In this document: piece by piece, positions 6,455 through 57,633 of the stretch
How positions within the stretch are numbered: position 1 is the first letter of the stretch
How the letters are laid out: each line of letters starts with the position of its first letter
NCBI RefSeq assembly: GCF_003018255.1
Contig: NZ_CP027440.1
Direction: 5' to 3' (one strand)
Source: Escherichia coli
GTDB lineage: Bacteria > Pseudomonadota > Gammaproteobacteria > Enterobacterales > Enterobacteriaceae
Length of the DNA: 64,000 nucleotides
Notes under the pieces: generated by a model
Seen by the model: only the letters and a program-made list of their open reading frames with translations
Database searches by the model: none
Told to the model about the DNA's origin: nothing
Made by a program: the position numbers and the translations under genes

Positions 6455-6700
6455 AGGCGGCGCAGTTGCGCCGCCTCAAATGATTTACATAGTGCGCTTT
6501 GTTTATGTCGGATGCGGCGTGAACGCCTTATCCGGCCTACAAAACTGTGCAAATTCAATATATTGCAGGAAAAACGTAGGCCTGATAAGCGAAGCGCATC
6601 AGGCAGTTTTGCGTTTGTCAGCAGTCTCAAGCGGCGCAGTTACGCCGCCTTTGTAGGAATTAATCGCCGGATGCAAGGTTCACGCCGCATCTGGCAAACA
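6455..6700. repeat. BIME/RIP-type cluster of REP palindromes (katE-chbG intergenic)
   Basis: Hairpin GAGGCGGCGC...GCGCCGCCTC at 6455-6478; canonical REP units GGATGCGGCGTGAACGCCTTATCCGGCCTAC (about 6510-6545) and inverted copies at about 6578-6607 and 6663-6697; central segment resembles an IHF-site-containing RIP element. Confidence 0.8.
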
Positions 6701-13656: not shown

Positions 13657-13757
13657 TCACGCCGGATGCGGCGTGAACGCCTTACTCGACCTACAAAACT
13701 ATGCAAATTCAATACATTGCAGGAGTCGAATAGGCCTGACAGGCGTAGCACGTCAGA
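13657..13757. repeat. BIME/RIP-type REP cluster (nadE-cho intergenic)
   Basis: REP unit GCCGGATGCGGCGTGAACGCCTTACTCGACCTAC and inverted partner AATAGGCCTGACAGGCGTAGCACGTCAGAC; central segment near-identical to the one at 6540-6580. Confidence 0.8.
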
Positions 13758-13844: not shown

Positions 13845-15345
<1,501 letters not shown>

Positions 15346-31102: not shown

Positions 31103-31110
31103 CATTGCAA

Positions 31111-31737
31111 TTACTGACGCTGGAGCGACTTCAGCGTCAGATACCCACTCCACACCCGCGTAAAGGTCGTCATCCAGCACAACGCACCAAATACCCACGC
31201 AAACCACGGAAAACAGGCCGGAAAGAGGCAACTCAGAACAAACAGCAAAATCGTCTCGCTGCCTTCGGTTAAGCCGCCCAGATAATAAAACGATTTATGC
31301 GCATAACCGGGATTATCAATCTGATGTTTCGCCGCCAGCGCAGCAAAAGCGAGAAAACTGCTGCCCGTGCCGATAAACGCAAACAACAGCCAGCCTCCGG
31401 CCAGCGCGTTTTGTTCTGGTGCGGCGAGAATAAAACCAAACGGCACCAGCGCGTAAAAGAGAAAATCGAGAGAAATATCGAGAAAGCCGCCCGCGTCGGT
31501 AAGTCCTCTGCGCCGCGCCAGCGCACCGTCCAGACCATCAAGCAGCCTGTTCAACAAAATGACGATTAGCGCCGCCAGATACCAGCCCAGCGCCAGAAAC
31601 GGCAGTGCCAGCACGCCGATGGCAAATCCCACTAATGTTAAACCATCTGGCGTGATGCCGGGTTTATCCAGCACCTTCACACACTGATGCAACAAAGGTT
31701 TAATTCGGGGATGAAGATGGCGGTCTAGCACAGGCAC
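31111..31737 (-). CDS. ynjF: CDP-alcohol phosphatidyltransferase family membrane protein YnjF
   Basis: 208-aa ORF with D-G-x2-A-R ... D motif region (DGLDGALARRRG). Confidence 0.8.
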   Translation of the reverse strand: MPVLDRHLHPRIKPLLHQCVKVLDKPGITPDGLTLVGFAIGVLALPFLALGWYLAALIVILLNRLLDGLDGALARRRGLTDAGGFLDISLDFLFYALVPFGFILAAPEQNALAGGWLLFAFIGTGSSFLAFAALAAKHQIDNPGYAHKSFYYLGGLTEGSETILLFVLSCLFPACFPWFAWVFGALCWMTTFTRVWSGYLTLKSLQRQ

Positions 31738-31817: not shown

Positions 31818-32225
31818 ATGAAAATGATTGAAGTTGTTGCCGCCATCATTGAACGTGATGGCAAAATTTTACTCGCGCAACGCCCCGCCCAGAGCGATCA
31901 GGCGGGATTATGGGAGTTTGCCGGTGGTAAAGTCGAGCCGGATGAAAGCCAGCGGCAGGCGCTGGTGCGTGAGTTAAACGAAGAACTGGGCATCGAAGCA
32001 ACTGTTGGTGACTATGTTGCCAGCCATCAGCGAGAAGTTTCGGGGCGGATTATCCATCTTCATGCCTGGCACGTACCCGACTTCCACGGGACGTTACAGG
32101 CACATGAACATCAGGCGCTGGTCTGGTGCTCACCTGAAGAGGCGCTGCAATATCCGCTGGCCCCTGCTGACATTCCATTATTAGAGGCGTTTATGGCTTT
32201 ACGCGCCGCCAGACCAGCGGATTAG
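31818..32225 (+). CDS. nudG: Nudix hydrolase NudG (CTP pyrophosphohydrolase)
   Basis: 135-aa ORF with Nudix box GGKVEPDESQRQALVRELNEELGI. Confidence 0.9.
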   Translation: MKMIEVVAAIIERDGKILLAQRPAQSDQAGLWEFAGGKVEPDESQRQALVRELNEELGIEATVGDYVASHQREVSGRIIHLHAWHVPDFHGTLQAHEHQALVWCSPEEALQYPLAPADIPLLEAFMALRAARPAD

Positions 32226-32463
32226 TGCTAAGGTTTTTGTCATCCTGTTGGCATTGCAGCAGTATTCCTTCGGCTTTAATTACCGCCCCTTCAGAATAAT
32301 TTTGATCCTGATAAACGCAGCACTGAGTACAGGGCTGCGCTGACTGCCCGCCTGAACTGAACACTTCTGGCGGTACGTTTACCTCCACGTCCGGACGATA
32401 ATGCGGGTTAGCCAGTGCAATTATTGGAAATGCTAATACTACGGCGAACAATGCTCGACTCAC
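32191..32463 (-). CDS. ynjH: DUF1496 secreted protein YnjH
   Basis: 90-aa ORF with signal peptide; 3' end overlaps nudG by 35 bp. Confidence 0.75.
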   Translation of the reverse strand: MSRALFAVVLAFPIIALANPHYRPDVEVNVPPEVFSSGGQSAQPCTQCCVYQDQNYSEGAVIKAEGILLQCQQDDKNLSTNPLVWRRVKP

Positions 32464-34042: not shown

Positions 34043-34050
34043 GACAATTG

Positions 34051-34082
34051 TGCCGGATACAGCGCAAACGCCTTATCCGGCC
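34051..34082. repeat. REP palindrome (gdhA-topB intergenic)
   Basis: TGCCGGATACAGCGCAAACGCCTTATCCGGCC. Confidence 0.7.
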
Positions 34083-34118
34083 ATAAAAATCTTCAGTATC
34101 AGATGGTTGAAAGAACCT

Positions 34119-36074
34119 TTATATTATCACTCCATTGCCCGCCTCTTCTGATGGCGGGCTTTTTTTCGGCGCTCTCTTGCGTGGCGAATCCTTTTTCTTC
34201 CCTTCTCCACCGCCGGGAGCCATTATTCCCCGAAACTGCCTTACCGACGTGCGCTTTGCCTGATCAATCAACTGGTACAATGTCCCCACCAGCGGCTGCA
34301 TAAAGTCCTGATAGCGACACTGCTTTTCGCTGATTTGCGTCAGCACCGATTCCCAGTGCGCGGTCATGTCCGGTCGCGTCGCCATTTCTGGCAGCGAATG
34401 GAATAGCGCTTTTCCGGCGTCGGTGGAGTGGATATAGCGCCCTTTTTTGGTCAGGAAGCCTCGCTTGAACAGCAGTTCAATAATCCCGGCGCGAGTCGCT
34501 TCTGTCCCCAGACCATCGGTCGCACGAAGGATCTTTTTCAGATCTTTGTCCTGCACAAAACGTGCTATCCCGGTCATCGCTGAAAGCAGTGTTGCATCGG
34601 TAAAATGGCGCGGCGGCTGGGTTTGCCGCTCTACCACTTCACCTTTTTCACACAGCAACTCATCGCCTTTCGCCACCACAGGCAGCGGCGTGCCGTCGTT
34701 TTCTTCATCGCGCTCTTTGCTGCCTAACAGTGTGCGCCAGCCTGCTTCAGCAAGAAAACGGGCTTTAGCGACAAATTTGCCTTTGGCAATGTCCAGTTCG
34801 ATAACACACTTGCGGAACACCGCATCCGGGCAGAACTGCATCAAATACTGACGGGCAATCAGGTTATAGACCTTCGCTTCGTTCTCCGTCAGGTTGATCG
34901 CAGAACTCCGTGCGGTCGGGATGATGGCGTGGTGCGCATCGACTTTTTTGTCATCCCAACAGCGGTTGCGTATATCTGGATCGACCACTGGCTGCGGCAA
35001 CAGATCTGGTGCATGAACGCTGATAGCATTCATCACCGCGTGGCGTCCGGCAAAATGTTCTTCTGGCAAATAGCGGCAATCGGAACGCGGATAAGTGATT
35101 AGCTTGTGCGTTTCGTACAGCTTCTGGCAGATATCAAGCACGTTCTGCGCGCTCAGACCAAAACGTTTAGCCGCTTCAATCTGCAACGCCGAAAGCGAAA
35201 AAGGCAGCGGCGCGGATTCTGATTCCCGTTTATCGTTATAGCTGGTGACAATAGCTGGTTGACCACTAATGCGGTTAACCACATGCTCCGCCAGTGGACG
35301 ATGTAATAAGCGCCCTTCTTCATCCTGGTACGGTTCACACGCTTCGCTCGGTTGCCAGATAGCGGTAAACCGCTCATCGGCAGGTGTCACGATATGTGCT
35401 TTGACTTCAAAGAAGTCTTTCGCCACGAAGTTTTCAATCTCTTCGTCGCGGCGCACCACCAGTCCGAGTACGGGCGTCTGCACGCGTCCCACGGAAAGCA
35501 CGCCCTGATAACCGGCATTGCGACCGAGAATGGTATACGCACGGGTCATATTAATGCCGTACAGCCAGTCAGCTCGCGCACGCGCCAGTGCAGAAACGCA
35601 CAGCGGTACAAACTCGCTATTGGAGCGAAGACGATCGATCGCCCGCTCAACCGCCTGCGGGTTCAGGTCGTTTATCAAACAACGCTGTACCTGCTGGCGC
35701 TTTTCCGGTGCCAGTTGCAGGTAGTCCAGCACTTCATCCACCAGCAGTTGCCCTTCGCGATCCGGGTCTCCGGCGTGAACGATTTCGCTGGCTTCATGCA
35801 GGAAGCGTTTGATGACATTAAGTTGTTTAGTCACGGAGGGTCGGGGCTGTAATTGCCACTTTTCCGGGACAATCGGCAAATCCGCAAGATTCCAGCGCGC
35901 ATAGCGGCTGTCGTAGGCGTCTGGCTGCGCCTGCTCAAGCAGGTGACCGATACACCAGGTCACCACCTGACCATTACCGCACTCGATAAAGCCATCGCCT
36001 TTCCGGTGCGGTTTAGGCAGGACATCAGCAATGGCGCGCGCCAGACTCGGTTTTTCGGCAATAAACAACCGCAT
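34119..36074 (-). CDS. topB: DNA topoisomerase III
   Basis: ORF 34119-36131; start placed at ATG 36074 ([16 protein letters not shown]...); Toprim/type IA topoisomerase. Confidence 0.9.
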
Positions 36075-52141: not shown

Positions 52142-53632
52142 ATGAAATTGCACCATAGAATGCTCCGGCATTTTATCGCCGCAAGTGTCATTGTGCTGAC
52201 ATCTTCCTTCCTTATTTTTGAACTTGTCGCCAGCGACAGAGCAATGAGTGCCTATCTGCGCTATATCGTGCAGAGAGCAGACTCCTCCTTTCTTTATGAT
52301 AAGTATCAGAATCAGAGTATTGCCGCGCATGTGATGCGCGCTCTCGCTGCTGAGCAGTCGGAAGTGTCGCCAGAACAGCGGCGCGCCATCTGCGAGGCTT
52401 TTGAGTCTGCCAATAATACCCATGGCTTAAACCTGACTGCCCATAAATACCCGGACTTACGCGGCACACTACAAACCGCATCCACTGACTGCGACACAAT
52501 TGTGGAAGCTGCAGCACTATTACCCGCTTTTGATCAGGCAGTGGAAAGCAACCGCCACCAGGATGATTACGGTTCAGGTCTTGGGATGGCCGAAGAGAAA
52601 TTTCACTATTATCTCGATCTCAATGACCGCTATGTCTATTTTTATGAGCCGGTTAATGTTGAGTACTTTGCGATGAATAACTGGTCTTTCCTGCAGTCAG
52701 GAAGTATTGGCATCGATCGCAAAGATATTGAAAAGGTATTTACCGGGCGTACCGTTTTATCGAGCATTTACCAGGATCAGCGTACTAAACAGAACGTGAT
52801 GAGTTTGCTGACGCCGGTATATGTCGCAGGGCAGCTAAAAGGGATTGTGCTGCTGGATATTAACAAAAACAATCTGCGGAATATCTTTTACACTCATGAC
52901 CGCCCTCTCCTCTGGCGTTTTCTCAATGTCACGCTAACCGATACCGATTCGGGGCGCGACATTATCATCAACCAGAGCGAAGATAATCTGTTCCAGTATG
53001 TCAGTTACGTCCATGACTTACCGGGCGGCATTCGTGTCTCGTTATCCATTGATATTCTTTACTTTATCACGTCTTCGTGGAAAAGCGTTCTGTTCTGGAT
53101 TTTGACGGCGTTAATTTTGCTGAATATGGTGCGGATGCACTTCCGTTTATACCAAAACGTGTCGCGAGAAAATATTAGTGATGCGATGACTGGACTGTAT
53201 AATCGCAAAATTTTAACCCCTGAACTGGAGCAGCGGTTGCAGAAGCTGGTGCAATCCGGTTCTTCGGTGATGTTTATTGCAATTGACATGGACAAGTTAA
53301 AGCAAATAAATGACACCCTCGGTCATCAGGAGGGGGATTTAGCGATTACGTTATTAGCTCAGGCGATTAAACAATCGATTCGTAAAAGTGATTATGCCAT
53401 CCGACTCGGTGGCGATGAATTCTGCATCATTCTTGTCGATTCGACGCCGCAAATTGCAGCACAACTGCCTGAACGTATCGAAAAACGTCTGCAACATATC
53501 GCGCCGCAGAAAGAGATCGGCTTCTCTTCCGGTATTTACGCGATGAAAGAAAACGATACGTTACATGATGCGTATAAAGCTTCCGATGAGCGTTTATATG
53601 TCAATAAGCAGAACAAAAACAGCCGTTCATGA
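52142..53632 (+). CDS. yeaJ: membrane-anchored diguanylate cyclase YeaJ/DgcJ
   Basis: ORF 51962-53632; start at ATG 52142 with RBS aaggag; intact RLGGDEF motif; 496 aa. Confidence 0.85.
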   Translation: MKLHHRMLRHFIAASVIVLTSSFLIFELVASDRAMSAYLRYIVQRADSSFLYDKYQNQSIAAHVMRALAAEQSEVSPEQRRAICEAFESANNTHGLNLTAHKYPDLRGTLQTASTDCDTIVEAAALLPAFDQAVESNRHQDDYGSGLGMAEEKFHYYLDLNDRYVYFYEPVNVEYFAMNNWSFLQSGSIGIDRKDIEKVFTGRTVLSSIYQDQRTKQNVMSLLTPVYVAGQLKGIVLLDINKNNLRNIFYTHDRPLLWRFLNVTLTDTDSGRDIIINQSEDNLFQYVSYVHDLPGGIRVSLSIDILYFITSSWKSVLFWILTALILLNMVRMHFRLYQNVSRENISDAMTGLYNRKILTPELEQRLQKLVQSGSSVMFIAIDMDKLKQINDTLGHQEGDLAITLLAQAIKQSIRKSDYAIRLGGDEFCIILVDSTPQIAAQLPERIEKRLQHIAPQKEIGFSSGIYAMKENDTLHDAYKASDERLYVNKQNKNSRS

Positions 53633-53674
53633 TAACCTTCTGTGGTTGTTTGCTTGTAATCTCAGGAGCATGAA

Positions 53675-54178
53675 ATGACTGAAATGGCTAAAGGAAGCGT
53701 GACGCATCAGCGGTTAATCGCTTTATTATCACAAGAAGGTGCTGACTTCCGCGTCGTTACCCATGAAGCGGTAGGTAAATGTGAAGCGGTGTCAGAAATT
53801 CGTGGCACCGCTTTAGGCCAGGGGGCTAAGGCACTGGTATGTAAAGTCAAAGGCAATGGTGTAAATCAACATGTTCTGGCGATCCTCGCGGCCGATCAAC
53901 AGGCCGATCTGAGCCAACTCGCCAGCCATATAGGCGGATTACGCGCTTCGTTGGCCAGCCCGGCGGAAGTCGATGAACTCACAGGCTGTGTCTTCGGCGC
54001 GATCCCCCCTTTCAGCTTCCATCCAAAACTCAAACTGGTTGCCGATCCCCTACTCTTCGAACGATTTGATGAAATCGCCTTCAATGCAGGCATGCTGGAT
54101 AAATCCGTTATTTTGAAAACCGCGGATTATTTGCGCATTGCGCAACCAGAACTGGTCAATTTCCGCCGCACTGCGTAA
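53675..54178 (+). CDS. yeaK: YbaK/ProX-family aminoacyl-tRNA deacylase YeaK
   Basis: 167-aa ORF. Confidence 0.8.
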   Translation: MTEMAKGSVTHQRLIALLSQEGADFRVVTHEAVGKCEAVSEIRGTALGQGAKALVCKVKGNGVNQHVLAILAADQQADLSQLASHIGGLRASLASPAEVDELTGCVFGAIPPFSFHPKLKLVADPLLFERFDEIAFNAGMLDKSVILKTADYLRIAQPELVNFRRTA

Positions 54179-54283
54179 CTAGCCTGTCCGTTCGATAAGA
54201 AGAACGGACAAAACCAGCACAACAGCAATGGCAAAAAACGATGACGTGATAATCAGTGTCTCGACGAACATTTGATCGTTCAT
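54179..54283 (-). CDS. yoaI: 34-aa small membrane protein YoaI
   Basis: Read by hand on minus strand: ATG AAC GAT CAA ATG TTC GTC GAG ... TAG = [34 protein letters not shown]; not in ORF track (below 60 aa). Confidence 0.75.
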
Positions 54284-54452
54284 AGTATGCCCCCGGGAGA
54301 TAGTTGTTTTCACGTTATTGTTAGCGTGCGCAAATGGCAGTTTGATGACAGTTCGCCTGATTTTTTATGCAAAAAACGTAAAGATTTTCTACTTCCTTCC
54401 TGCAGCAAGCGTAAAGTAAGCAGGCTTATTATTCTTTGGCAAGGAAACCACG

Positions 54453-54899
54453 ATGTTTGATGTCACTTTGCTGATCCTGCTCGGGTTAGCTGCGCTGGGC
54501 TTTATCAGTCATAACACCACTGTCGCCGTTTCAATTCTGGTGTTAATCATTGTCCGCGTCACACCGTTAAGCACCTTTTTCCCGTGGATTGAAAAACAGG
54601 GGCTAAGTATCGGGATAATCATTCTGACGATTGGCGTTATGGCTCCCATCGCCAGCGGGACGCTACCGCCCTCAACCCTGATTCACTCGTTTCTGAACTG
54701 GAAATCGCTGGTGGCAATTGCAGTCGGCGTTATTGTCTCCTGGCTGGGGGGGCGCGGCGTGACGTTAATGGGCAGCCAGCCGCAACTGGTCGCCGGGCTG
54801 CTGGTGGGCACTGTTTTGGGCGTGGCGCTGTTTCGCGGCGTACCGGTTGGCCCGCTTATTGCCGCGGGTCTGGTTTCGCTGATTGTGGGGAAACAGTAG
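54453..54899 (+). CDS. yeaL: DUF441 inner membrane protein YeaL
   Basis: 148-aa hydrophobic ORF. Confidence 0.8.
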
Positions 54900-55677
54900 T
54901 TAATCCCGCAATATATCGGCCTGGCGTTTGCCCCAGGCCTTTCTTAAACATAGTAATAAAGGCCGTTGTTGAATCATACCCCAGCGTATGAGCAACTTTC
55001 TGTACAGTATCGCCTTTCACTAATCCCTGAAGCGCCATAATCAGCTGTAACTGCTGACGCCACTGGCGAAAACTCACCCCCGTCTCTTTCACTATCAGTC
55101 GGGCAAGATTGCGTTCACTCATCGCAAAAAAGCGAGCCCATTGCCCCAATGACCCCCACTCGACGGGCTCTTTCGCCATCATCTCCACCATCGCGCGGAT
55201 TTTAGGATGAGAAGAAACGGGTAGGTGCAGCTGTTGTTGTGGCTGCTGAGGGAGTTCATCAAACAGGACCTGAATTAATCTGCGGGTCATCGGCTCAGCA
55301 CGCTGAGTCGTCGTCCTGTTTGCCAGGGTTAAAATTAATTCCCGGCATAAGGGCGATATTTTCAATGTGCAACAGGTTGTCGGCATTGTCACTGCGCTGG
55401 GTTCGATAAACAGAAAACAGAGTTCAGCGTTAGCTGTCACTTGATTGCTATGTTCCACCCCTCCCGGTATCCAAACCGCATATTGTGGCGGCACCATCCA
55501 CAAAGCATTTTCCACCGTACAGGTAATTGCACCATGTAGTGCCAGTATCAACTGTCCTTTGCGGTGCTGATGTACAGGACTGGTTAACTCATCCGTTCCG
55601 GCGTGAATACAAAATGCGACCGCGGCTTCATGGTGTCGGTCGGGTTCATAGCCATTGAGATTCAACCTGTGCATCAT
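54856..55677 (-). CDS. yeaM: AraC-family transcriptional regulator YeaM/NimR
   Basis: 273-aa ORF with cupin N-domain and AraC HTH; 3' end overlaps yeaL by 44 bp. Confidence 0.85.
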
Positions 55678-55773
55678 TTTGTCCGAATTTAGCGATAATT
55701 TGTCATTTTAGCTTGATTCAACATAACAATAAAAACGGTAAGGTACAGCCTCGTTTGTAACAATGAGAAGCAT

Positions 55774-56955
55774 ATGACCTGTTCAACTTCATTAAGCGGC
55801 AAAAACAGGATTGTCCTTATCGCTGGCATTCTGATGATTGCCACAACATTACGCGTCACCTTTACCGGCGCAGCACCGTTACTGGATACGATTCGTTCCG
55901 CTTACTCGCTGACGACGGCGCAAACCGGCTTATTGACCACCCTGCCATTATTAGCCTTTGCGCTAATCTCACCTTTGGCTGCCCCGGTGGCGCGACGTTT
56001 TGGTATGGAACGTAGCCTGTTTGCCGCGTTACTTTTGATCTGTGCTGGTATCGCAATTCGCTCTCTCCCTTCGCCTTACTTATTATTTGGCGGTACAGCG
56101 GTCATTGGCGGTGGGATTGCATTAGGCAATGTCTTACTGCCAGGATTAATTAAACGCGATTTCCCTCATTCCGTCGCCAGACTTACCGGCGCATATTCCC
56201 TGACAATGGGAGCTGCAGCGGCACTGGGATCGACTATGGTCGTGCCGCTGGCTTTGAACGGTTTTGGCTGGCAAGGCGCGTTGCTCATGCTGATGTCTTT
56301 TCCTCTGCTGGCTCTTTTTTTATGGCTGCCACAGTGGCGAAGTCAACAACATGCAAATTTGAGTACCTCACGCGCCTTACATACTCGGGGTATCTGGCGT
56401 TCGCCGCTTGCCTGGCAGGTAACATTGTTTCTTGGGATCAACTCACTGGTCTATTACGTGATTATTGGCTGGCTTCCGGCGATTCTCATCAGTCACGGCT
56501 ATAGCGAAGCACAGGCGGGTTCACTGCATGGTTTGCTGCAACTAGCCACAGCAGCTCCCGGTTTGCTGATCCCACTTTTCTTACATCATGTGAAAGATCA
56601 GCGTGGTATTGCAGCGTTCGTTGCCTTGATGTGCGCAGTGGCCGCGGTTGGGCTCTGCTTTATGCCAGCACACGCGATCACCTGGACTCTGCTTTTCGGT
56701 TTTGGTTCCGGCGCAACAATGATACTGGGGTTGACGTTCATTGGTCTGCGGGCAAGTTCTGCGCATCAGGCGGCGGCACTCTCGGGGATGGCACAATCCG
56801 TCGGGTATTTGCTGGCAGCCTGTGGGCCGCCGCTGATGGGTAAAATACACGATGCTAACGGTGACTGGTCCGTACCACTGATGGGTGTTGCAATACTTTC
56901 ACTACTGATGGCGATTTTCGGACTTTGCGCCGGGAGAGACAAAGAAATTCGCTAA
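55774..56955 (+). CDS. yeaN: MFS transporter YeaN/NimT
   Basis: 393-aa 12-TM-like ORF divergent from yeaM. Confidence 0.85.
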   Translation: MTCSTSLSGKNRIVLIAGILMIATTLRVTFTGAAPLLDTIRSAYSLTTAQTGLLTTLPLLAFALISPLAAPVARRFGMERSLFAALLLICAGIAIRSLPSPYLLFGGTAVIGGGIALGNVLLPGLIKRDFPHSVARLTGAYSLTMGAAAALGSTMVVPLALNGFGWQGALLMLMSFPLLALFLWLPQWRSQQHANLSTSRALHTRGIWRSPLAWQVTLFLGINSLVYYVIIGWLPAILISHGYSEAQAGSLHGLLQLATAAPGLLIPLFLHHVKDQRGIAAFVALMCAVAAVGLCFMPAHAITWTLLFGFGSGATMILGLTFIGLRASSAHQAAALSGMAQSVGYLLAACGPPLMGKIHDANGDWSVPLMGVAILSLLMAIFGLCAGRDKEIR

Positions 56956-57009: not shown

Positions 57010-57357
57010 ATGAATATTCAGTGCAAACGCGTTTATGATCCGGCTGAACAGAGCGATGGTTATCGCGTACTGGTCGACCGCCTCTGGCCACGCGGTATCA
57101 AAAAAACCGATTTAGCCCTTGATGAATGGGATAAAGAAATCACGCCGTCAACGGAACTGCGCAAAGCCTTTCACGGCGAAGTCGTCGATTTTGCAACCTT
57201 TCGCGAGCAATATCTTGCAGAACTGGCGCAACACGAGCAAGAAGGAAAGCGGCTGGCGAACATCGCCAAAAAACAGCCGCTGACCCTGCTCTACTCAGCA
57301 AAAAACACCACGCAGAACCATGCGCTGGTGCTGGCAGACTGGCTACGTAGCTTGTGA
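57010..57357 (+). CDS. yeaO: DUF488 protein YeaO
   Basis: ORF 56989-57357; start at ATG 57010 with RBS gggaga; 115 aa. Confidence 0.8.
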   Translation: MNIQCKRVYDPAEQSDGYRVLVDRLWPRGIKKTDLALDEWDKEITPSTELRKAFHGEVVDFATFREQYLAELAQHEQEGKRLANIAKKQPLTLLYSAKNTTQNHALVLADWLRSL

Positions 57358-57378
57358 TTTTAGTACGCCATCCGGCAG

Positions 57379-57633
57379 TTATTTTTCACCAGCCGGATGG
57401 TCCCGTCGCCACAATGCCCATTCATCAATCGTTTCACCGCCCGGTAATTTGCAATTGTTGCTGACCCCTTGCGCTGTCTGCACAGGAATGAGCGTCCCGC
57501 CCTTCTGCTGGCAATAGACCGACGCCGGATTTGCCATACCAATCTGCGGCGGTTTAGGTGCTTCTGGCTGAGAAGGGGTTGAACAACCAGCCAGGACCAG
57601 CAAGCAAGGCAGAACAAAACTGATAATTTTCAT
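57379..57633 (-). CDS. yoaF: DUF333 lipoprotein YoaF
   Basis: 84-aa ORF with lipobox LAGC. Confidence 0.8.
   Translation of the reverse strand: MKIISFVLPCLLVLAGCSTPSQPEAPKPPQIGMANPASVYCQQKGGTLIPVQTAQGVSNNCKLPGGETIDEWALWRRDHPAGEK

Follow-up and report, generated by a model that had tools for sequence, protein, structure and literature searches.

We propose that three tail-to-tail gene pairs of Escherichia coli, yeaL-nimR, cho-ves and nudG-ynjH, are in all likelihood ordinary convergent overlaps of coding sequences in phase 1, by-products of stop codon drift that are accompanied by asymmetric read-through. The pairs lie in a window of 64,000 nt, the whole stretch of E. coli DNA that was analysed (Table 1). 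According to ORF calls and RefSeq annotation, the ends of yeaL and nimR (=yeaM) have 44 bp in common, those of cho and ves 41 bp and those of nudG and ynjH 35 bp. The values are identical in E. coli K-12 (coordinates from Huang 2020 Table S1), and the PGAP annotation of strain JNE23-011 (100% identical) contains the same three overlaps. The original prediction of three convergent overlaps of these lengths is borne out by ORF lists, PGAP and K-12 coordinates, and coordinates and sequence agree that both stop codons of each pair lie inside the partner gene. All six genes are genuine and conserved, each with a Pfam or NCBIfam family match, and Ves, YnjH and YeaL have hundreds of homologues. The mechanically called ves ORF extends past the PGAP ATG to a TTG at 15330. 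Real genes, stops within the partner, overlap of the orthologues in two genomes or more (a criterion that guards against artefacts) and a length of 35-44 bp, under the limit of ~60 bp beyond which most overlaps stem from misannotation (PMC2478687), are found for all three pairs and qualify them as convergent overlapping genes. They are members of the set of conserved prokaryotic convergent overlaps described earlier (Rogozin 2002 via PMC2478687; Huvet & Stumpf 2014, PMC4161906), with which they share a length below 60 bp, stop codon movement, phase 1 and occurrence in more than one genome, and from which nothing substantive sets them apart. The overlaps are real, ordinary and already known, and the exact pairs have been catalogued.

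Table 1. Positions in the window of the overlapping genes, the overlaps, the bases that set overlap length, the yeaL-side hairpin and published RNA duplexes
Feature	Position	Strand	Basis
cho CDS, excinuclease Cho, 295 aa	13845..14732	+	ORF + annotation
published p19-captured RNase III duplex inside cho	14505..14525	.	Huang 2020 Table S3, mapped with 3 mismatches
cho/ves CDS overlap, 41 bp, phase 1	14692..14732	.	ORF, sequence, annotation
ves CDS, HutD family, 191 aa	14692..15267	-	PGAP ATG start
published p19-captured RNase III duplex inside ves	14834..14854	.	Huang 2020 Table S3, mapped with 1 mismatch
nudG CDS, CTP pyrophosphohydrolase, 135 aa	31818..32225	+	ORF + annotation
nudG/ynjH CDS overlap, 35 bp, phase 1	32191..32225	.	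ORF, sequence, annotation
ynjH CDS, DUF1496, 90 aa	32191..32463	-	ORF + annotation
base cutting nudG/ynjH overlap from 41 to 35 bp	32224	.	sequence, junction comparison
yeaL CDS, DUF441 membrane protein, 148 aa	54453..54899	+	ORF + PGAP
yeaL/nimR CDS overlap, 44 bp, phase 1	54856..54899	.	ORF, sequence, PGAP
nimR (=yeaM) CDS, AraC-family regulator, 273 aa	54856..55677	-	ORF + PGAP
base setting yeaL/nimR overlap length	54885	.	sequence, tail table, alignment
intrinsic-terminator-like hairpin GGCCTGG-N8-CCAGGCC + T-tract	54918..54947	+	scan

How might such overlaps arise? Where facing genes are packed without a spacer, drift of a stop codon would suffice: a short, weakly constrained C-terminal tail on one protein of the pair (NimR; NudG; both Ves and Cho) would extend into the partner gene and end where the antisense strand of that gene first offers a stop in frame. 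The protein ends are consistent with this scheme. The Pfam domain DUF441 spans residues 7-145 of the 148 residues of YeaL, so that the overlapped C-terminus belongs to the conserved domain, and the last 12 residues are conserved in 80 species. The HTH_18 domain of NimR (Pfam) ends at residue 255 of 273; beyond it lies a variable tail of ~18 residues, and most genera have a NimR of 264 aa. In the second pair the NCBIfam equivalog NF007833 spans residues 1-287 of the 295 of Cho, whose tail is variable beyond ..YEI[TI]EL, and Pfam HutD stops at residue 175 of the 191 of Ves; the Ves proteins of Enterobacter and Lelliottia are shorter (185 aa) and that of Scandinavium is longer (200 aa). The NUDIX domain of NudG stops at residue 125 of 135; in the facing YnjH, DUF1496 occupies residues 33-89 of 90 and the C-terminal STNPLVWRRV is invariant across 6 genera. 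A shorter conserved C-terminus in one partner had been named beforehand as the finding that would count against the overlaps. The NimR, Ves, NudG and Cho tails do lie outside or at the edge of their domains and vary in length between genera, but the overlaps are real in E. coli.

Conservation had been put forward as a check on the overlaps, and length comparisons at all three junctions give a divided answer: the overlaps are fixed within E. coli and labile between genera. This is because single base changes move the stop codon. Of 5426 E. coli genomes, 5408 carry a yeaL/nimR junction with at least 95% identity. Across the 58 species in which nimR is adjacent, an in-frame walk to the first stop yields an overlap of 17 bp in 27, 44 bp in 13, 20-21 bp in 4, 45 bp in 1 and 6 bp in 2, which makes 47 overlapping pairs; in 8 species the value is 0 to -5 bp and in 3 a gap of more than 120 bp separates the genes. 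The form of most Enterobacteriaceae is the 17-bp one, and a single position toggles between the two main states. With G at 54885 YeaL has V145, NimR reads Q265 (CAA) and the overlap is 44 bp; with A, YeaL has I145, NimR meets a TAA stop and the overlap is 17 bp. Loci in which YeaL ends in ..LIIGK. or ..FIGK. mostly carry the 17-bp form. We considered this form as a polymorphism within E. coli and rejected it: the junction of ‘E. coli E69’ is only 90% identical to that of any RefSeq E. coli and belongs to a divergent lineage. Twenty-two species, E. albertii and E. whittamii among them, lack the nimR-nimT cassette altogether.

The other two junctions behave similarly, in cross-genus samples that are small (7 genomes for cho/ves, 6 for nudG/ynjH). 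E. fergusonii has the 41-bp cho/ves overlap, which divergent E. coli alleles also retain; in Lelliottia the two genes share 23 bp and in an Enterobacter-type genome 4 bp. Salmonella, C. koseri and Scandinavium lack cho, and Ves keeps its 191-aa tail where cho is absent. For nudG/ynjH the 35 bp are likewise retained in divergent E. coli alleles, and Salmonella, Citrobacter, Enterobacter, E. fergusonii and Scandinavium have 41 bp. The difference is again one base: A at 32224 gives nudG a TAG stop where other genera have TCG (Ser), is synonymous in ynjH (ACG to ACT, a Thr codon), and leaves the stop at the ancestral position still present at 32229-32231. The same 41 bp in five genera is a point against the by-product view, as it could reflect selection for overlap; we attribute the constancy to the invariant C-terminus of YnjH, which fixes the stop on the opposite strand. 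We interpret the overlaps, with their single-base toggles at 54885 and 32224, as by-products of stop codon drift and not as conserved regulatory devices.

Neither the lengths nor the phase of the overlaps is unusual. When opposite-strand read-in was followed in the same phase for the 66 coding sequences of the region, the first stop was encountered at a median of 45.5 nt, and in 65% of cases the read-in ran for at least 35 nt, so overlaps of 35-44 bp have the lengths expected from random stop spacing. All three are phase 1 (length equal to 2 modulo 3), the commonest phase: among natural convergent overlaps of more than 4 nt, almost one in two belongs to it. We rejected the idea that the phase is shared because its antisense frame is unusually open, since of the three frames this one is the richest in stops (1 per 20.7 codons). 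By annotation the window holds 13 convergent pairs, 3 of which overlap. With 75 convergent overlapping pairs counted in the E. coli reference genome (PMC4161906), about 1 overlap is expected per 64 kb and the Poisson probability of at least 3 is ~0.09. A local enrichment is not significant, and the window was picked after the fact.

What are the consequences for transcription? That full-length transcripts must be mutually antisense at their 3' ends follows from logic, since an mRNA that includes its own stop codon must complement the partner mRNA over 35-44 nt. This interpretation is right and is not new. ExcludonFinder (NAR 2025, PMC12288877 Table 1) lists cho-ves, nudG-ynjH and yeaL-nimR among 165 ‘convergent excludons’ of MG1655, called in at least 50% of 58 RNA-seq samples; ynjE-ynjF, yeaK-yoaI and yeaO-yoaF of the same window are in the catalogue too. 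That study covers the same pairs and proposes the same mechanisms (transcriptional interference, RNase III). It differs from the present analysis in resting on RNA-seq coverage, in containing no discussion of coding-sequence overlap, evolution or single pairs, and in naming the three pairs only in a table. Nor are antisense 3' ends created by the overlap of coding sequences: complementary 3' ends, with a mean overlap of 286 nt, have been found in 276 of 370 (~75%) convergent E. coli operons (Conway 2014, PMC4161252), and the three pairs resemble these inefficiently terminated operons in their complementary transcript ends. The expression consequence would then be the same as in most convergent E. 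coli operons, with transcript overlap that in these pairs would be both obligatory and asymmetric.

The asymmetry is apparent in published strand-specific data (Huang 2020 Table S1c, PMC7373196). Wild-type sense/antisense values, which are per-gene totals in RPM from single libraries and carry no positional map of 3' ends, are 7.9/19.2 for cho and 157/4.7 for ves, 9.0/45.4 for nudG and 80/2.7 for ynjH, 4.5/2.9 for yeaL and 17.6/0.84 for yeaM (nimR). Antisense RNA exceeds sense RNA for cho and nudG. Strand-specific RNA-seq and mapping of 3' ends had been suggested as the means to verify the antisense relationship. At the level of per-gene totals the antisense signal is heavy over cho and nudG and appreciable over yeaL, and together with the ExcludonFinder listing it documents transcript overlap of the opposite-strand neighbours in all three pairs. 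As to 3' ends, the entries of the Adams 2021 Term-seq tables hold none for yeaL, nimR, nudG or ynjH; the sole nearby site, 123 nt upstream of ves, fits the spy terminator. The published RNA-seq indicates that the stronger partner (ves, ynjH, nimR) reads into the weaker one (cho, nudG, yeaL). The listing in the excludon catalogue and the antisense excess at cho and nudG are also what would be expected of a selected excludon, and in this respect they speak against the by-product view.

We envisage that the stronger partners, which would have no intrinsic terminator near their stops, read hundreds of nucleotides into the weaker gene. Our scan detected no terminator-like site on the minus strand near any of the three junctions, and the ves, ynjH and nimR transcripts probably end by Rho action or RNA polymerase collision. 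Collision-driven bidirectional terminators such as ynaJ-uspE (Ju 2019; Wang 2022, 10.1101/2022.10.23.513370) also involve convergent genes with complementary 3' ends, where termination may use head-on collision of polymerases plus a hairpin. They are found in intergenic spacers with mapped overlapping 3' ends, whereas the three pairs have no spacer and no conserved hairpin inside the overlaps, the region where that hairpin would have to lie. An Rfam scan of the whole window gave no match at any junction, only two ES036/CssrF matches elsewhere.

The yeaL transcript may be treated differently. A hairpin begins 18 nt past the yeaL stop, within nimR codons 245-253 (KKGLGQTPG), with a 7-bp stem containing 6 G-C pairs, an 8-nt loop and then TTTCTTAA; the T-tract reads TTTTTT in Citrobacter and Salmonella. 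The fold has a predicted energy of -14.1 kcal/mol (z -1.97). With a GC-rich stem-loop, a U-rich tract and a position 3' of the stop, the element has the sequence features of an intrinsic terminator, and by its appearance it is one-directional, unlike the collision-driven class. Its loop varies, but the hairpin is retained in ~22 Escherichia, Citrobacter and Salmonella loci; elsewhere it is absent. Among 20 species the third-position entropy of the four stem codons is at most 0.29 bits, compared with 0.75-1.86 bits at 16 other conserved 4- or 6-fold sites. These sequence comparisons indicate that selection on synonymous sites maintains the hairpin beyond coding constraint, only within Escherichia, Citrobacter and Salmonella, and it would offer a modest case of a coding sequence that harbours a selectively retained terminator. 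The predicted terminator probably stops the yeaL transcript ~48 nt past the stop codon; the low antisense level over nimR (0.84 against 17.6 sense RPM) is compatible with such an activity without being specific to it. A second, strong hairpin closely follows the stop codon of cho (14751-14779, -21.7 kcal/mol, z -2.98). It was rejected as a conserved terminator or pause site, as it has already decayed in E. fergusonii and other genera lack it. Apart from this E. coli-specific structure and the hairpin on the yeaL side, itself outside the overlap, no significant structure was found in or beside the overlaps.

A stronger version of the same asymmetry would make the pairs one-directional (‘dominant/recessive’) excludons, in which terminator-less ves, ynjH and nimR suppress cho, nudG and yeaL by read-through and the hairpin embedded in nimR bars yeaL transcription from nimR. 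We regard this version as unlikely. If it is true, the hairpin, placed in synonymous sites of codons for the NimR DNA-binding domain, would count as a dual-coding element on which selection acts in Escherichia, Citrobacter and Salmonella. Somewhat more doubtful still is that the pairs are selected convergent excludons, in which one gene, through its transcription, represses the gene opposite by collision, duplex formation or both and expression becomes mutually exclusive, for instance stress gene ves against SOS nuclease cho, or nimR against yeaL. Such selection would accord with the cataloguing of all three pairs in at least half of the samples, the antisense excess at cho and nudG, the fixation of the overlaps across thousands of E. 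coli genomes, the 41 bp shared by five other genera at nudG/ynjH, and a p19 dsRNA signal above average for cho and ves (66-117 RPM, E and S sets). However, the listing is nearly automatic because overlapping coding sequences that are both expressed force a coverage-based overlap call, the overlap lengths are labile, the partners are dispensable, with cho missing in three genera and nimR-nimT in 22 species, and the papers found, PMC12288877 included, report no reciprocal expression for these pairs.

Coupling by RNase III, which the original prediction had raised beside transcriptional interference, finds no clear support. Here the complementary 3' ends would pair, the duplex would be cleaved and both mRNAs would be co-degraded or co-stabilized. 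Perfect p19-captured duplexes of ~21 nt do exist inside cho and ves on either side of the junction (the two in Table 1 and a third at 15121-15142), and the antisense RNA of cho, 19 RPM in the wild type, reaches 22 and 35 RPM in rnc mutants. The duplex in cho is ~170-190 nt beyond the ves stop and that at 14834-14854 ~100-120 nt beyond the cho stop; among the Huang 2020 entries listed, perfect RNase III duplexes occur at cho/ves only, 100-400 nt from the junction, and there is none within the overlaps nor any for nudG/ynjH or yeaL/nimR. Sense RNA shows no consistent rise in the two mutants (rnc-14 and rnc-38, respectively): cho goes from 7.9 to 6.4 and 5.7 RPM, nudG from 9.0 to 3.8 and 5.6, yeaL from 4.5 to 4.6 and 3.5, and nimR from 17.6 to 11.4 and 6.9. 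Genome-wide, p19 dsRNA density is 37.9-fold lower at 3' convergent than at 5' divergent overlaps, and some p19 signal is present in 87% of all genes, so that the presence of a duplex is not specific (Huang 2020, PMC7373196). The convergent neighbours fre-fadA, whose 3' regions form RNase III-processed dsRNA, are a comparable arrangement in the same study; they constitute a top 20 coding-gene dsRNA cluster, whereas the six genes considered here are unnamed in its main text and have an ordinary dsRNA signal, only cho and ves being moderately high. We judge this coupling very improbable. Least credible of all is that one partner of each pair is truly shorter owing to a sequencing error or a mis-called gene: the overlapped NimR, Ves, NudG and Cho tails do lie beyond or at the edge of domain models and long convergent overlaps in databases are often 3'-extension artefacts (PMC2478687), but the stop codons are unambiguous and recur in thousands of independent E. 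coli assemblies and K-12, the YeaL and YnjH domains run through the overlap, and, with the sub-60-bp lengths and the orthologous overlaps in other genera, this reading is already largely refuted.

Under the by-product explanation that we prefer, any regulatory effect would most likely be a mild, one-directional transcriptional interference on the weak partner, not a selected RNase III switch. As convergent coding-sequence overlaps and complementary 3' ends are well described in E. coli, the significance of the three pairs beyond bookkeeping is small. The asymmetric read-through matters when expression of cho, nudG or yeaL is measured or engineered, or when ves, ynjH or nimR is deleted.

Based on gene coordinates, comparisons across genomes and published transcript data, we regard the three pairs as very probably ordinary phase-1 convergent overlaps (tail to tail, with a length of 2 mod 3), arising from stop-codon drift in tightly packed genes, with complementary 3' ends and asymmetric read-through. 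The original prediction placed overlaps of 44 bp at yeaL/nimR, 41 bp at cho/ves and 35 bp at nudG/ynjH; ORF lists and PGAP ends match these sizes exactly, and the stop codons of all three pairs can be read in the sequence itself at the places claimed. K-12 coordinates give the same three lengths (Huang et al. 2020, Table S1). Region 53600-56000 is 100% identical to the chromosome of E. coli JNE23-011, with matches in 5413 of 5426 complete E. coli genomes; the RefSeq/PGAP annotation of the JNE23-011 record spans the entire window and is the basis for the gene-pair counts.

Coordinates of the overlapping genes, of near-abutting convergent junctions and of related features (positions in L loci, from related genomes, are locus-internal)
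Feature	Position	Strand	Source or remark
yeaL	54453-54899	+	mechanical ORF list and PGAP
nimR (formerly yeaM)	54856-55677	-	mechanical ORF list and PGAP
cho	13845-14732	+	mechanical ORF list and PGAP
ves	end at 14692	-	mechanical ORF list and PGAP
nudG	31818-32225	+	mechanical ORF list and PGAP
ynjH	32191-32463	-	mechanical ORF list and PGAP
yeaK stop / yoaI stop	54178/54179	convergent	gap 0
ynjE/ynjF junction	~31103-31112	convergent	gap 8 nt
yeaO/yoaF junction	~57357-57379	convergent	gap 21 nt
predicted yeaL terminator hairpin, GGCCTGG-N8-CCAGGCC then T-tract	54918-54947	+	within nimR codons 245-253
yeaL in loci without nimR-nimT	L005 807-1250; L006 3001-3444; L007 3001-3444; L008 1725-2168
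ves in loci without cho	L083 2001-2576; L084 2001-2576; L086 2001-2603

Are three such overlaps unusual? The annotation holds 13 convergent pairs in the window, of which three overlap and three more nearly abut (yeaK/yoaI, ynjE/ynjF and yeaO/yoaF). For the whole E. coli reference genome Huvet & Stumpf give a count of 75 overlapping convergent pairs (PMC4161906), so that about one is expected per 64 kb and three correspond to a Poisson P of ~0.09 before allowing for post-hoc selection. The three overlaps are not more than chance. Convergent overlaps make up 7% of well-characterised overlaps in 338 genomes and are suspect only when >60 bp (PMC2478687), and among natural ones exceeding 4 nt close to half are in phase 1. 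For the 66 coding sequences of this region, on reading into a neighbour's 3' end in phase 1, the first stop comes at a median of 45.5 nt, and at 35 nt or more in 65% of read-ins; 35-44 bp is thus a typical distance to the next stop. In YeaL (DUF441, residues 7-145 of 148) and YnjH (DUF1496, 33-89 of 90) the Pfam domain extends to the C-terminus, so that the overlapping residues of these two are under protein constraint. The other models stop short (Pfam: NimR helix-turn-helix at 255 of 273, Ves HutD at 175 of 191, NudG NUDIX at 125 of 135; NCBIfam: Cho equivalog at 287 of 295), and the overlaps are therefore built from short tails past or at the domain edge.

Conservation of the overlaps, a check called for in the original prediction, holds within E. 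coli, where they are fixed, but their lengths are not maintained between genera. The yeaL/nimR junction is at least 95% identical in 5408 of 5426 E. coli genomes. With each species represented by a single genome, the scan covered 80 Enterobacteriaceae yeaL loci; nimR is convergent to yeaL in 58 and not next to it in 22. Of these 58, 27 have a 17-bp overlap (Klebsiella, Enterobacter, Raoultella, Kluyvera, Leclercia and others; NimR of 264 aa), 13 have 44 bp (Escherichia type and Citrobacter freundii group), four 20-21 bp, one 45 bp, two 6 bp and eight 0 to -5 bp, and three have a gap of >120 bp. Base 54885 alone sets the main forms apart: G gives YeaL V145, NimR Q265 (CAA) and 44 bp, and A gives YeaL I145, a TAA stop in nimR and 17 bp. 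The 17-bp form was rejected as an E. coli variant, since strain E69 belongs to a divergent lineage with a junction only 90% identical. E. albertii, E. whittamii and two cryptic Escherichia lineages lack the entire nimR-nimT cassette at this site, with yeaO following yeaL, and in Escherichia sp. MOD1-EC7003 (locus L003, 2432-2616) nimR survives only as fragments of residues 2-42 and 250-273.

Salmonella, Citrobacter, Enterobacter, E. fergusonii and Scandinavium all have a nudG/ynjH overlap of 41 bp. The E. coli value of 35 bp is due to base 32224, through which nudG codon 136 reads TAG in place of TCG (Ser), a change silent in ynjH (threonine, ACG to ACT); the former nudG stop position persists at 32229-32231. 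The YnjH residues facing the NudG tail (STNPLVWRRV) are invariant, and differences in that tail such as A/D match silent ynjH changes (CGG/CGT), which suggests that NudG's tail changes as a passenger of YnjH. For cho/ves the DNA context shows E. fergusonii sharing the 41-bp overlap, with 23 bp for Lelliottia and 4 bp for an Enterobacter-type genome. Ves length also varies, from 185 aa (Enterobacter, Lelliottia) through 191 aa (Escherichia, Citrobacter, Salmonella) to 200 aa (Scandinavium). No cho lies between nadE and ves in one Salmonella enterica, one C. koseri and one Scandinavium genome; the Ves C-terminal tail is full-length even there and is therefore independent of the overlap. Both overlaps keep their E. 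coli lengths in divergent E. coli alleles. At these junctions (14682-14742 and 32178-32238) the strain carries minority alleles, with 61-bp identity in 226 and 78 of ~5400 E. coli genomes, and the sizes are unchanged in the common alleles and in the most divergent ones.

A selected excludon, in which overlapping transcription makes expression mutually exclusive, is rather improbable. In its favour, nudG/ynjH is steady at 41 bp, antisense exceeds sense, and ExcludonFinder places all three pairs among 165 convergent excludons found in at least 50% of 58 MG1655 RNA-seq samples (PMC12288877); against it, overlap lengths are labile and partner genes dispensable. The excludon call is almost automatic for pairs with overlapping coding sequences; the three near-abutting pairs are likewise listed, and 146 of the 165 have overlapping predicted terminators (PMC12288877). 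Conway et al. found complementary 3' ends in 276 of 370 convergent operons, with a mean overlap of 286 nt (PMC4161252), so antisense 3' ends are the rule with or without coding overlap. Wild-type sense/antisense RPM are 7.9/19.2 for cho, 156.7/4.7 for ves, 9.0/45.4 for nudG, 80.0/2.7 for ynjH, 4.5/2.9 for yeaL and 17.6/0.84 for yeaM (Huang 2020, Table S1c); evidently the stronger partner reads well into the weaker gene. yoaI has 2.35 sense against 13.4 antisense RPM (Huang 2020) and a p19 duplex at 54276-54297.

The original prediction also raised RNase III-mediated coupling, which the data do not support as a specific effect and which we consider very unlikely, although a small effect might go unseen in single libraries. 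Sense RPM show no consistent rise from wild type to two rnc mutants (cho 7.9 to 6.4 and 5.7; nudG 9.0 to 3.8 and 5.6; yeaL 4.5 to 4.6 and 3.5; nimR 17.6 to 11.4 and 6.9; Huang 2020). Perfect duplexes captured by p19 map in cho (14505-14525) and ves (14834-14854, 15121-15142), outside the overlap, and none among the duplexes listed belongs to nudG/ynjH or yeaL/nimR. At 3' convergent overlaps p19 dsRNA is genome-wide 37.9-fold scarcer than at 5' divergent ones (Huang 2020), and some p19 signal occurs in 87% of genes. An annotation artefact is scarcely credible; all six genes are genuine and conserved (Pfam, NCBIfam, homologues).

On the favoured reading, stop-codon drift in tightly packed facing genes generated phase-1 overlaps which common descent keeps fixed in E. 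coli and which are not preserved for their own sake from genus to genus. At the transcript level the 3' ends of partners are bound to be complementary, and the read-through is asymmetric, coming from the stronger gene. Rho suppresses antisense transcription, and from this and the collision model we infer that read-through probably ends by Rho or polymerase collision; regulation, if any, would most likely be mild one-directional interference. All three pairs belong to a class already described, that of conserved convergent overlapping genes, and differ, on the hairpin criterion as tested, from collision-type bidirectional terminators. No minus-strand terminator turned up in consensus scans around the three junctions, and folding of 55-60 nt 3' of each stop was no better than shuffled controls in four of six cases. 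A hairpin after the cho stop, in ves codons (14751-14779; 12 bp, -21.7 kcal/mol, z -2.98), was set aside as E. coli-specific, being already lost in E. fergusonii and not conserved in other genera.

The pairs themselves are already known from the published excludon catalogue (PMC12288877); modest novelty lies only in the one-base switches between overlap lengths and in a predicted yeaL terminator inside nimR whose synonymous sites are constrained. This hairpin begins 18 nt past the yeaL stop, in nimR helix-turn-helix codons. About 22 loci from Escherichia, Citrobacter and Salmonella retain it, with loops that vary; it is missing from other genera and from species without nimR. Across 20 species of this group, the four stem codons (G247 GGC, L248 CTG, P252 CCA, G253 GGC) have a third-position entropy of at most 0.29 bits, against 0.99-1.86 bits in loop codons and 0.75-1.86 bits at 16 other conserved 4- or 6-fold sites (low-entropy sites 4/4 versus 0/16; exact test ~2e-4). 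The codon comparison is good evidence for nucleotide-level selection on a predicted intrinsic terminator of yeaL embedded in nimR. The little antisense over nimR fits such a terminator, or simply low yeaL expression.

Elsewhere in the window, Rfam ES036 (CssrF) matches above the gathering score at 6541-6583 (+, katE-chbG) and 13695-13737 (+, nadE-cho); as 43-nt repeats at two intergenic sites, these are more suggestive of a repeated extragenic element than of unique sRNA genes. ynjI (b1762), which lies between gdhA and topB in K-12 (Huang 2020, Table S1), appears to be absent here, since the gdhA-topB spacing (~34043-34120) is only 76 bp in the matching strain's annotation.
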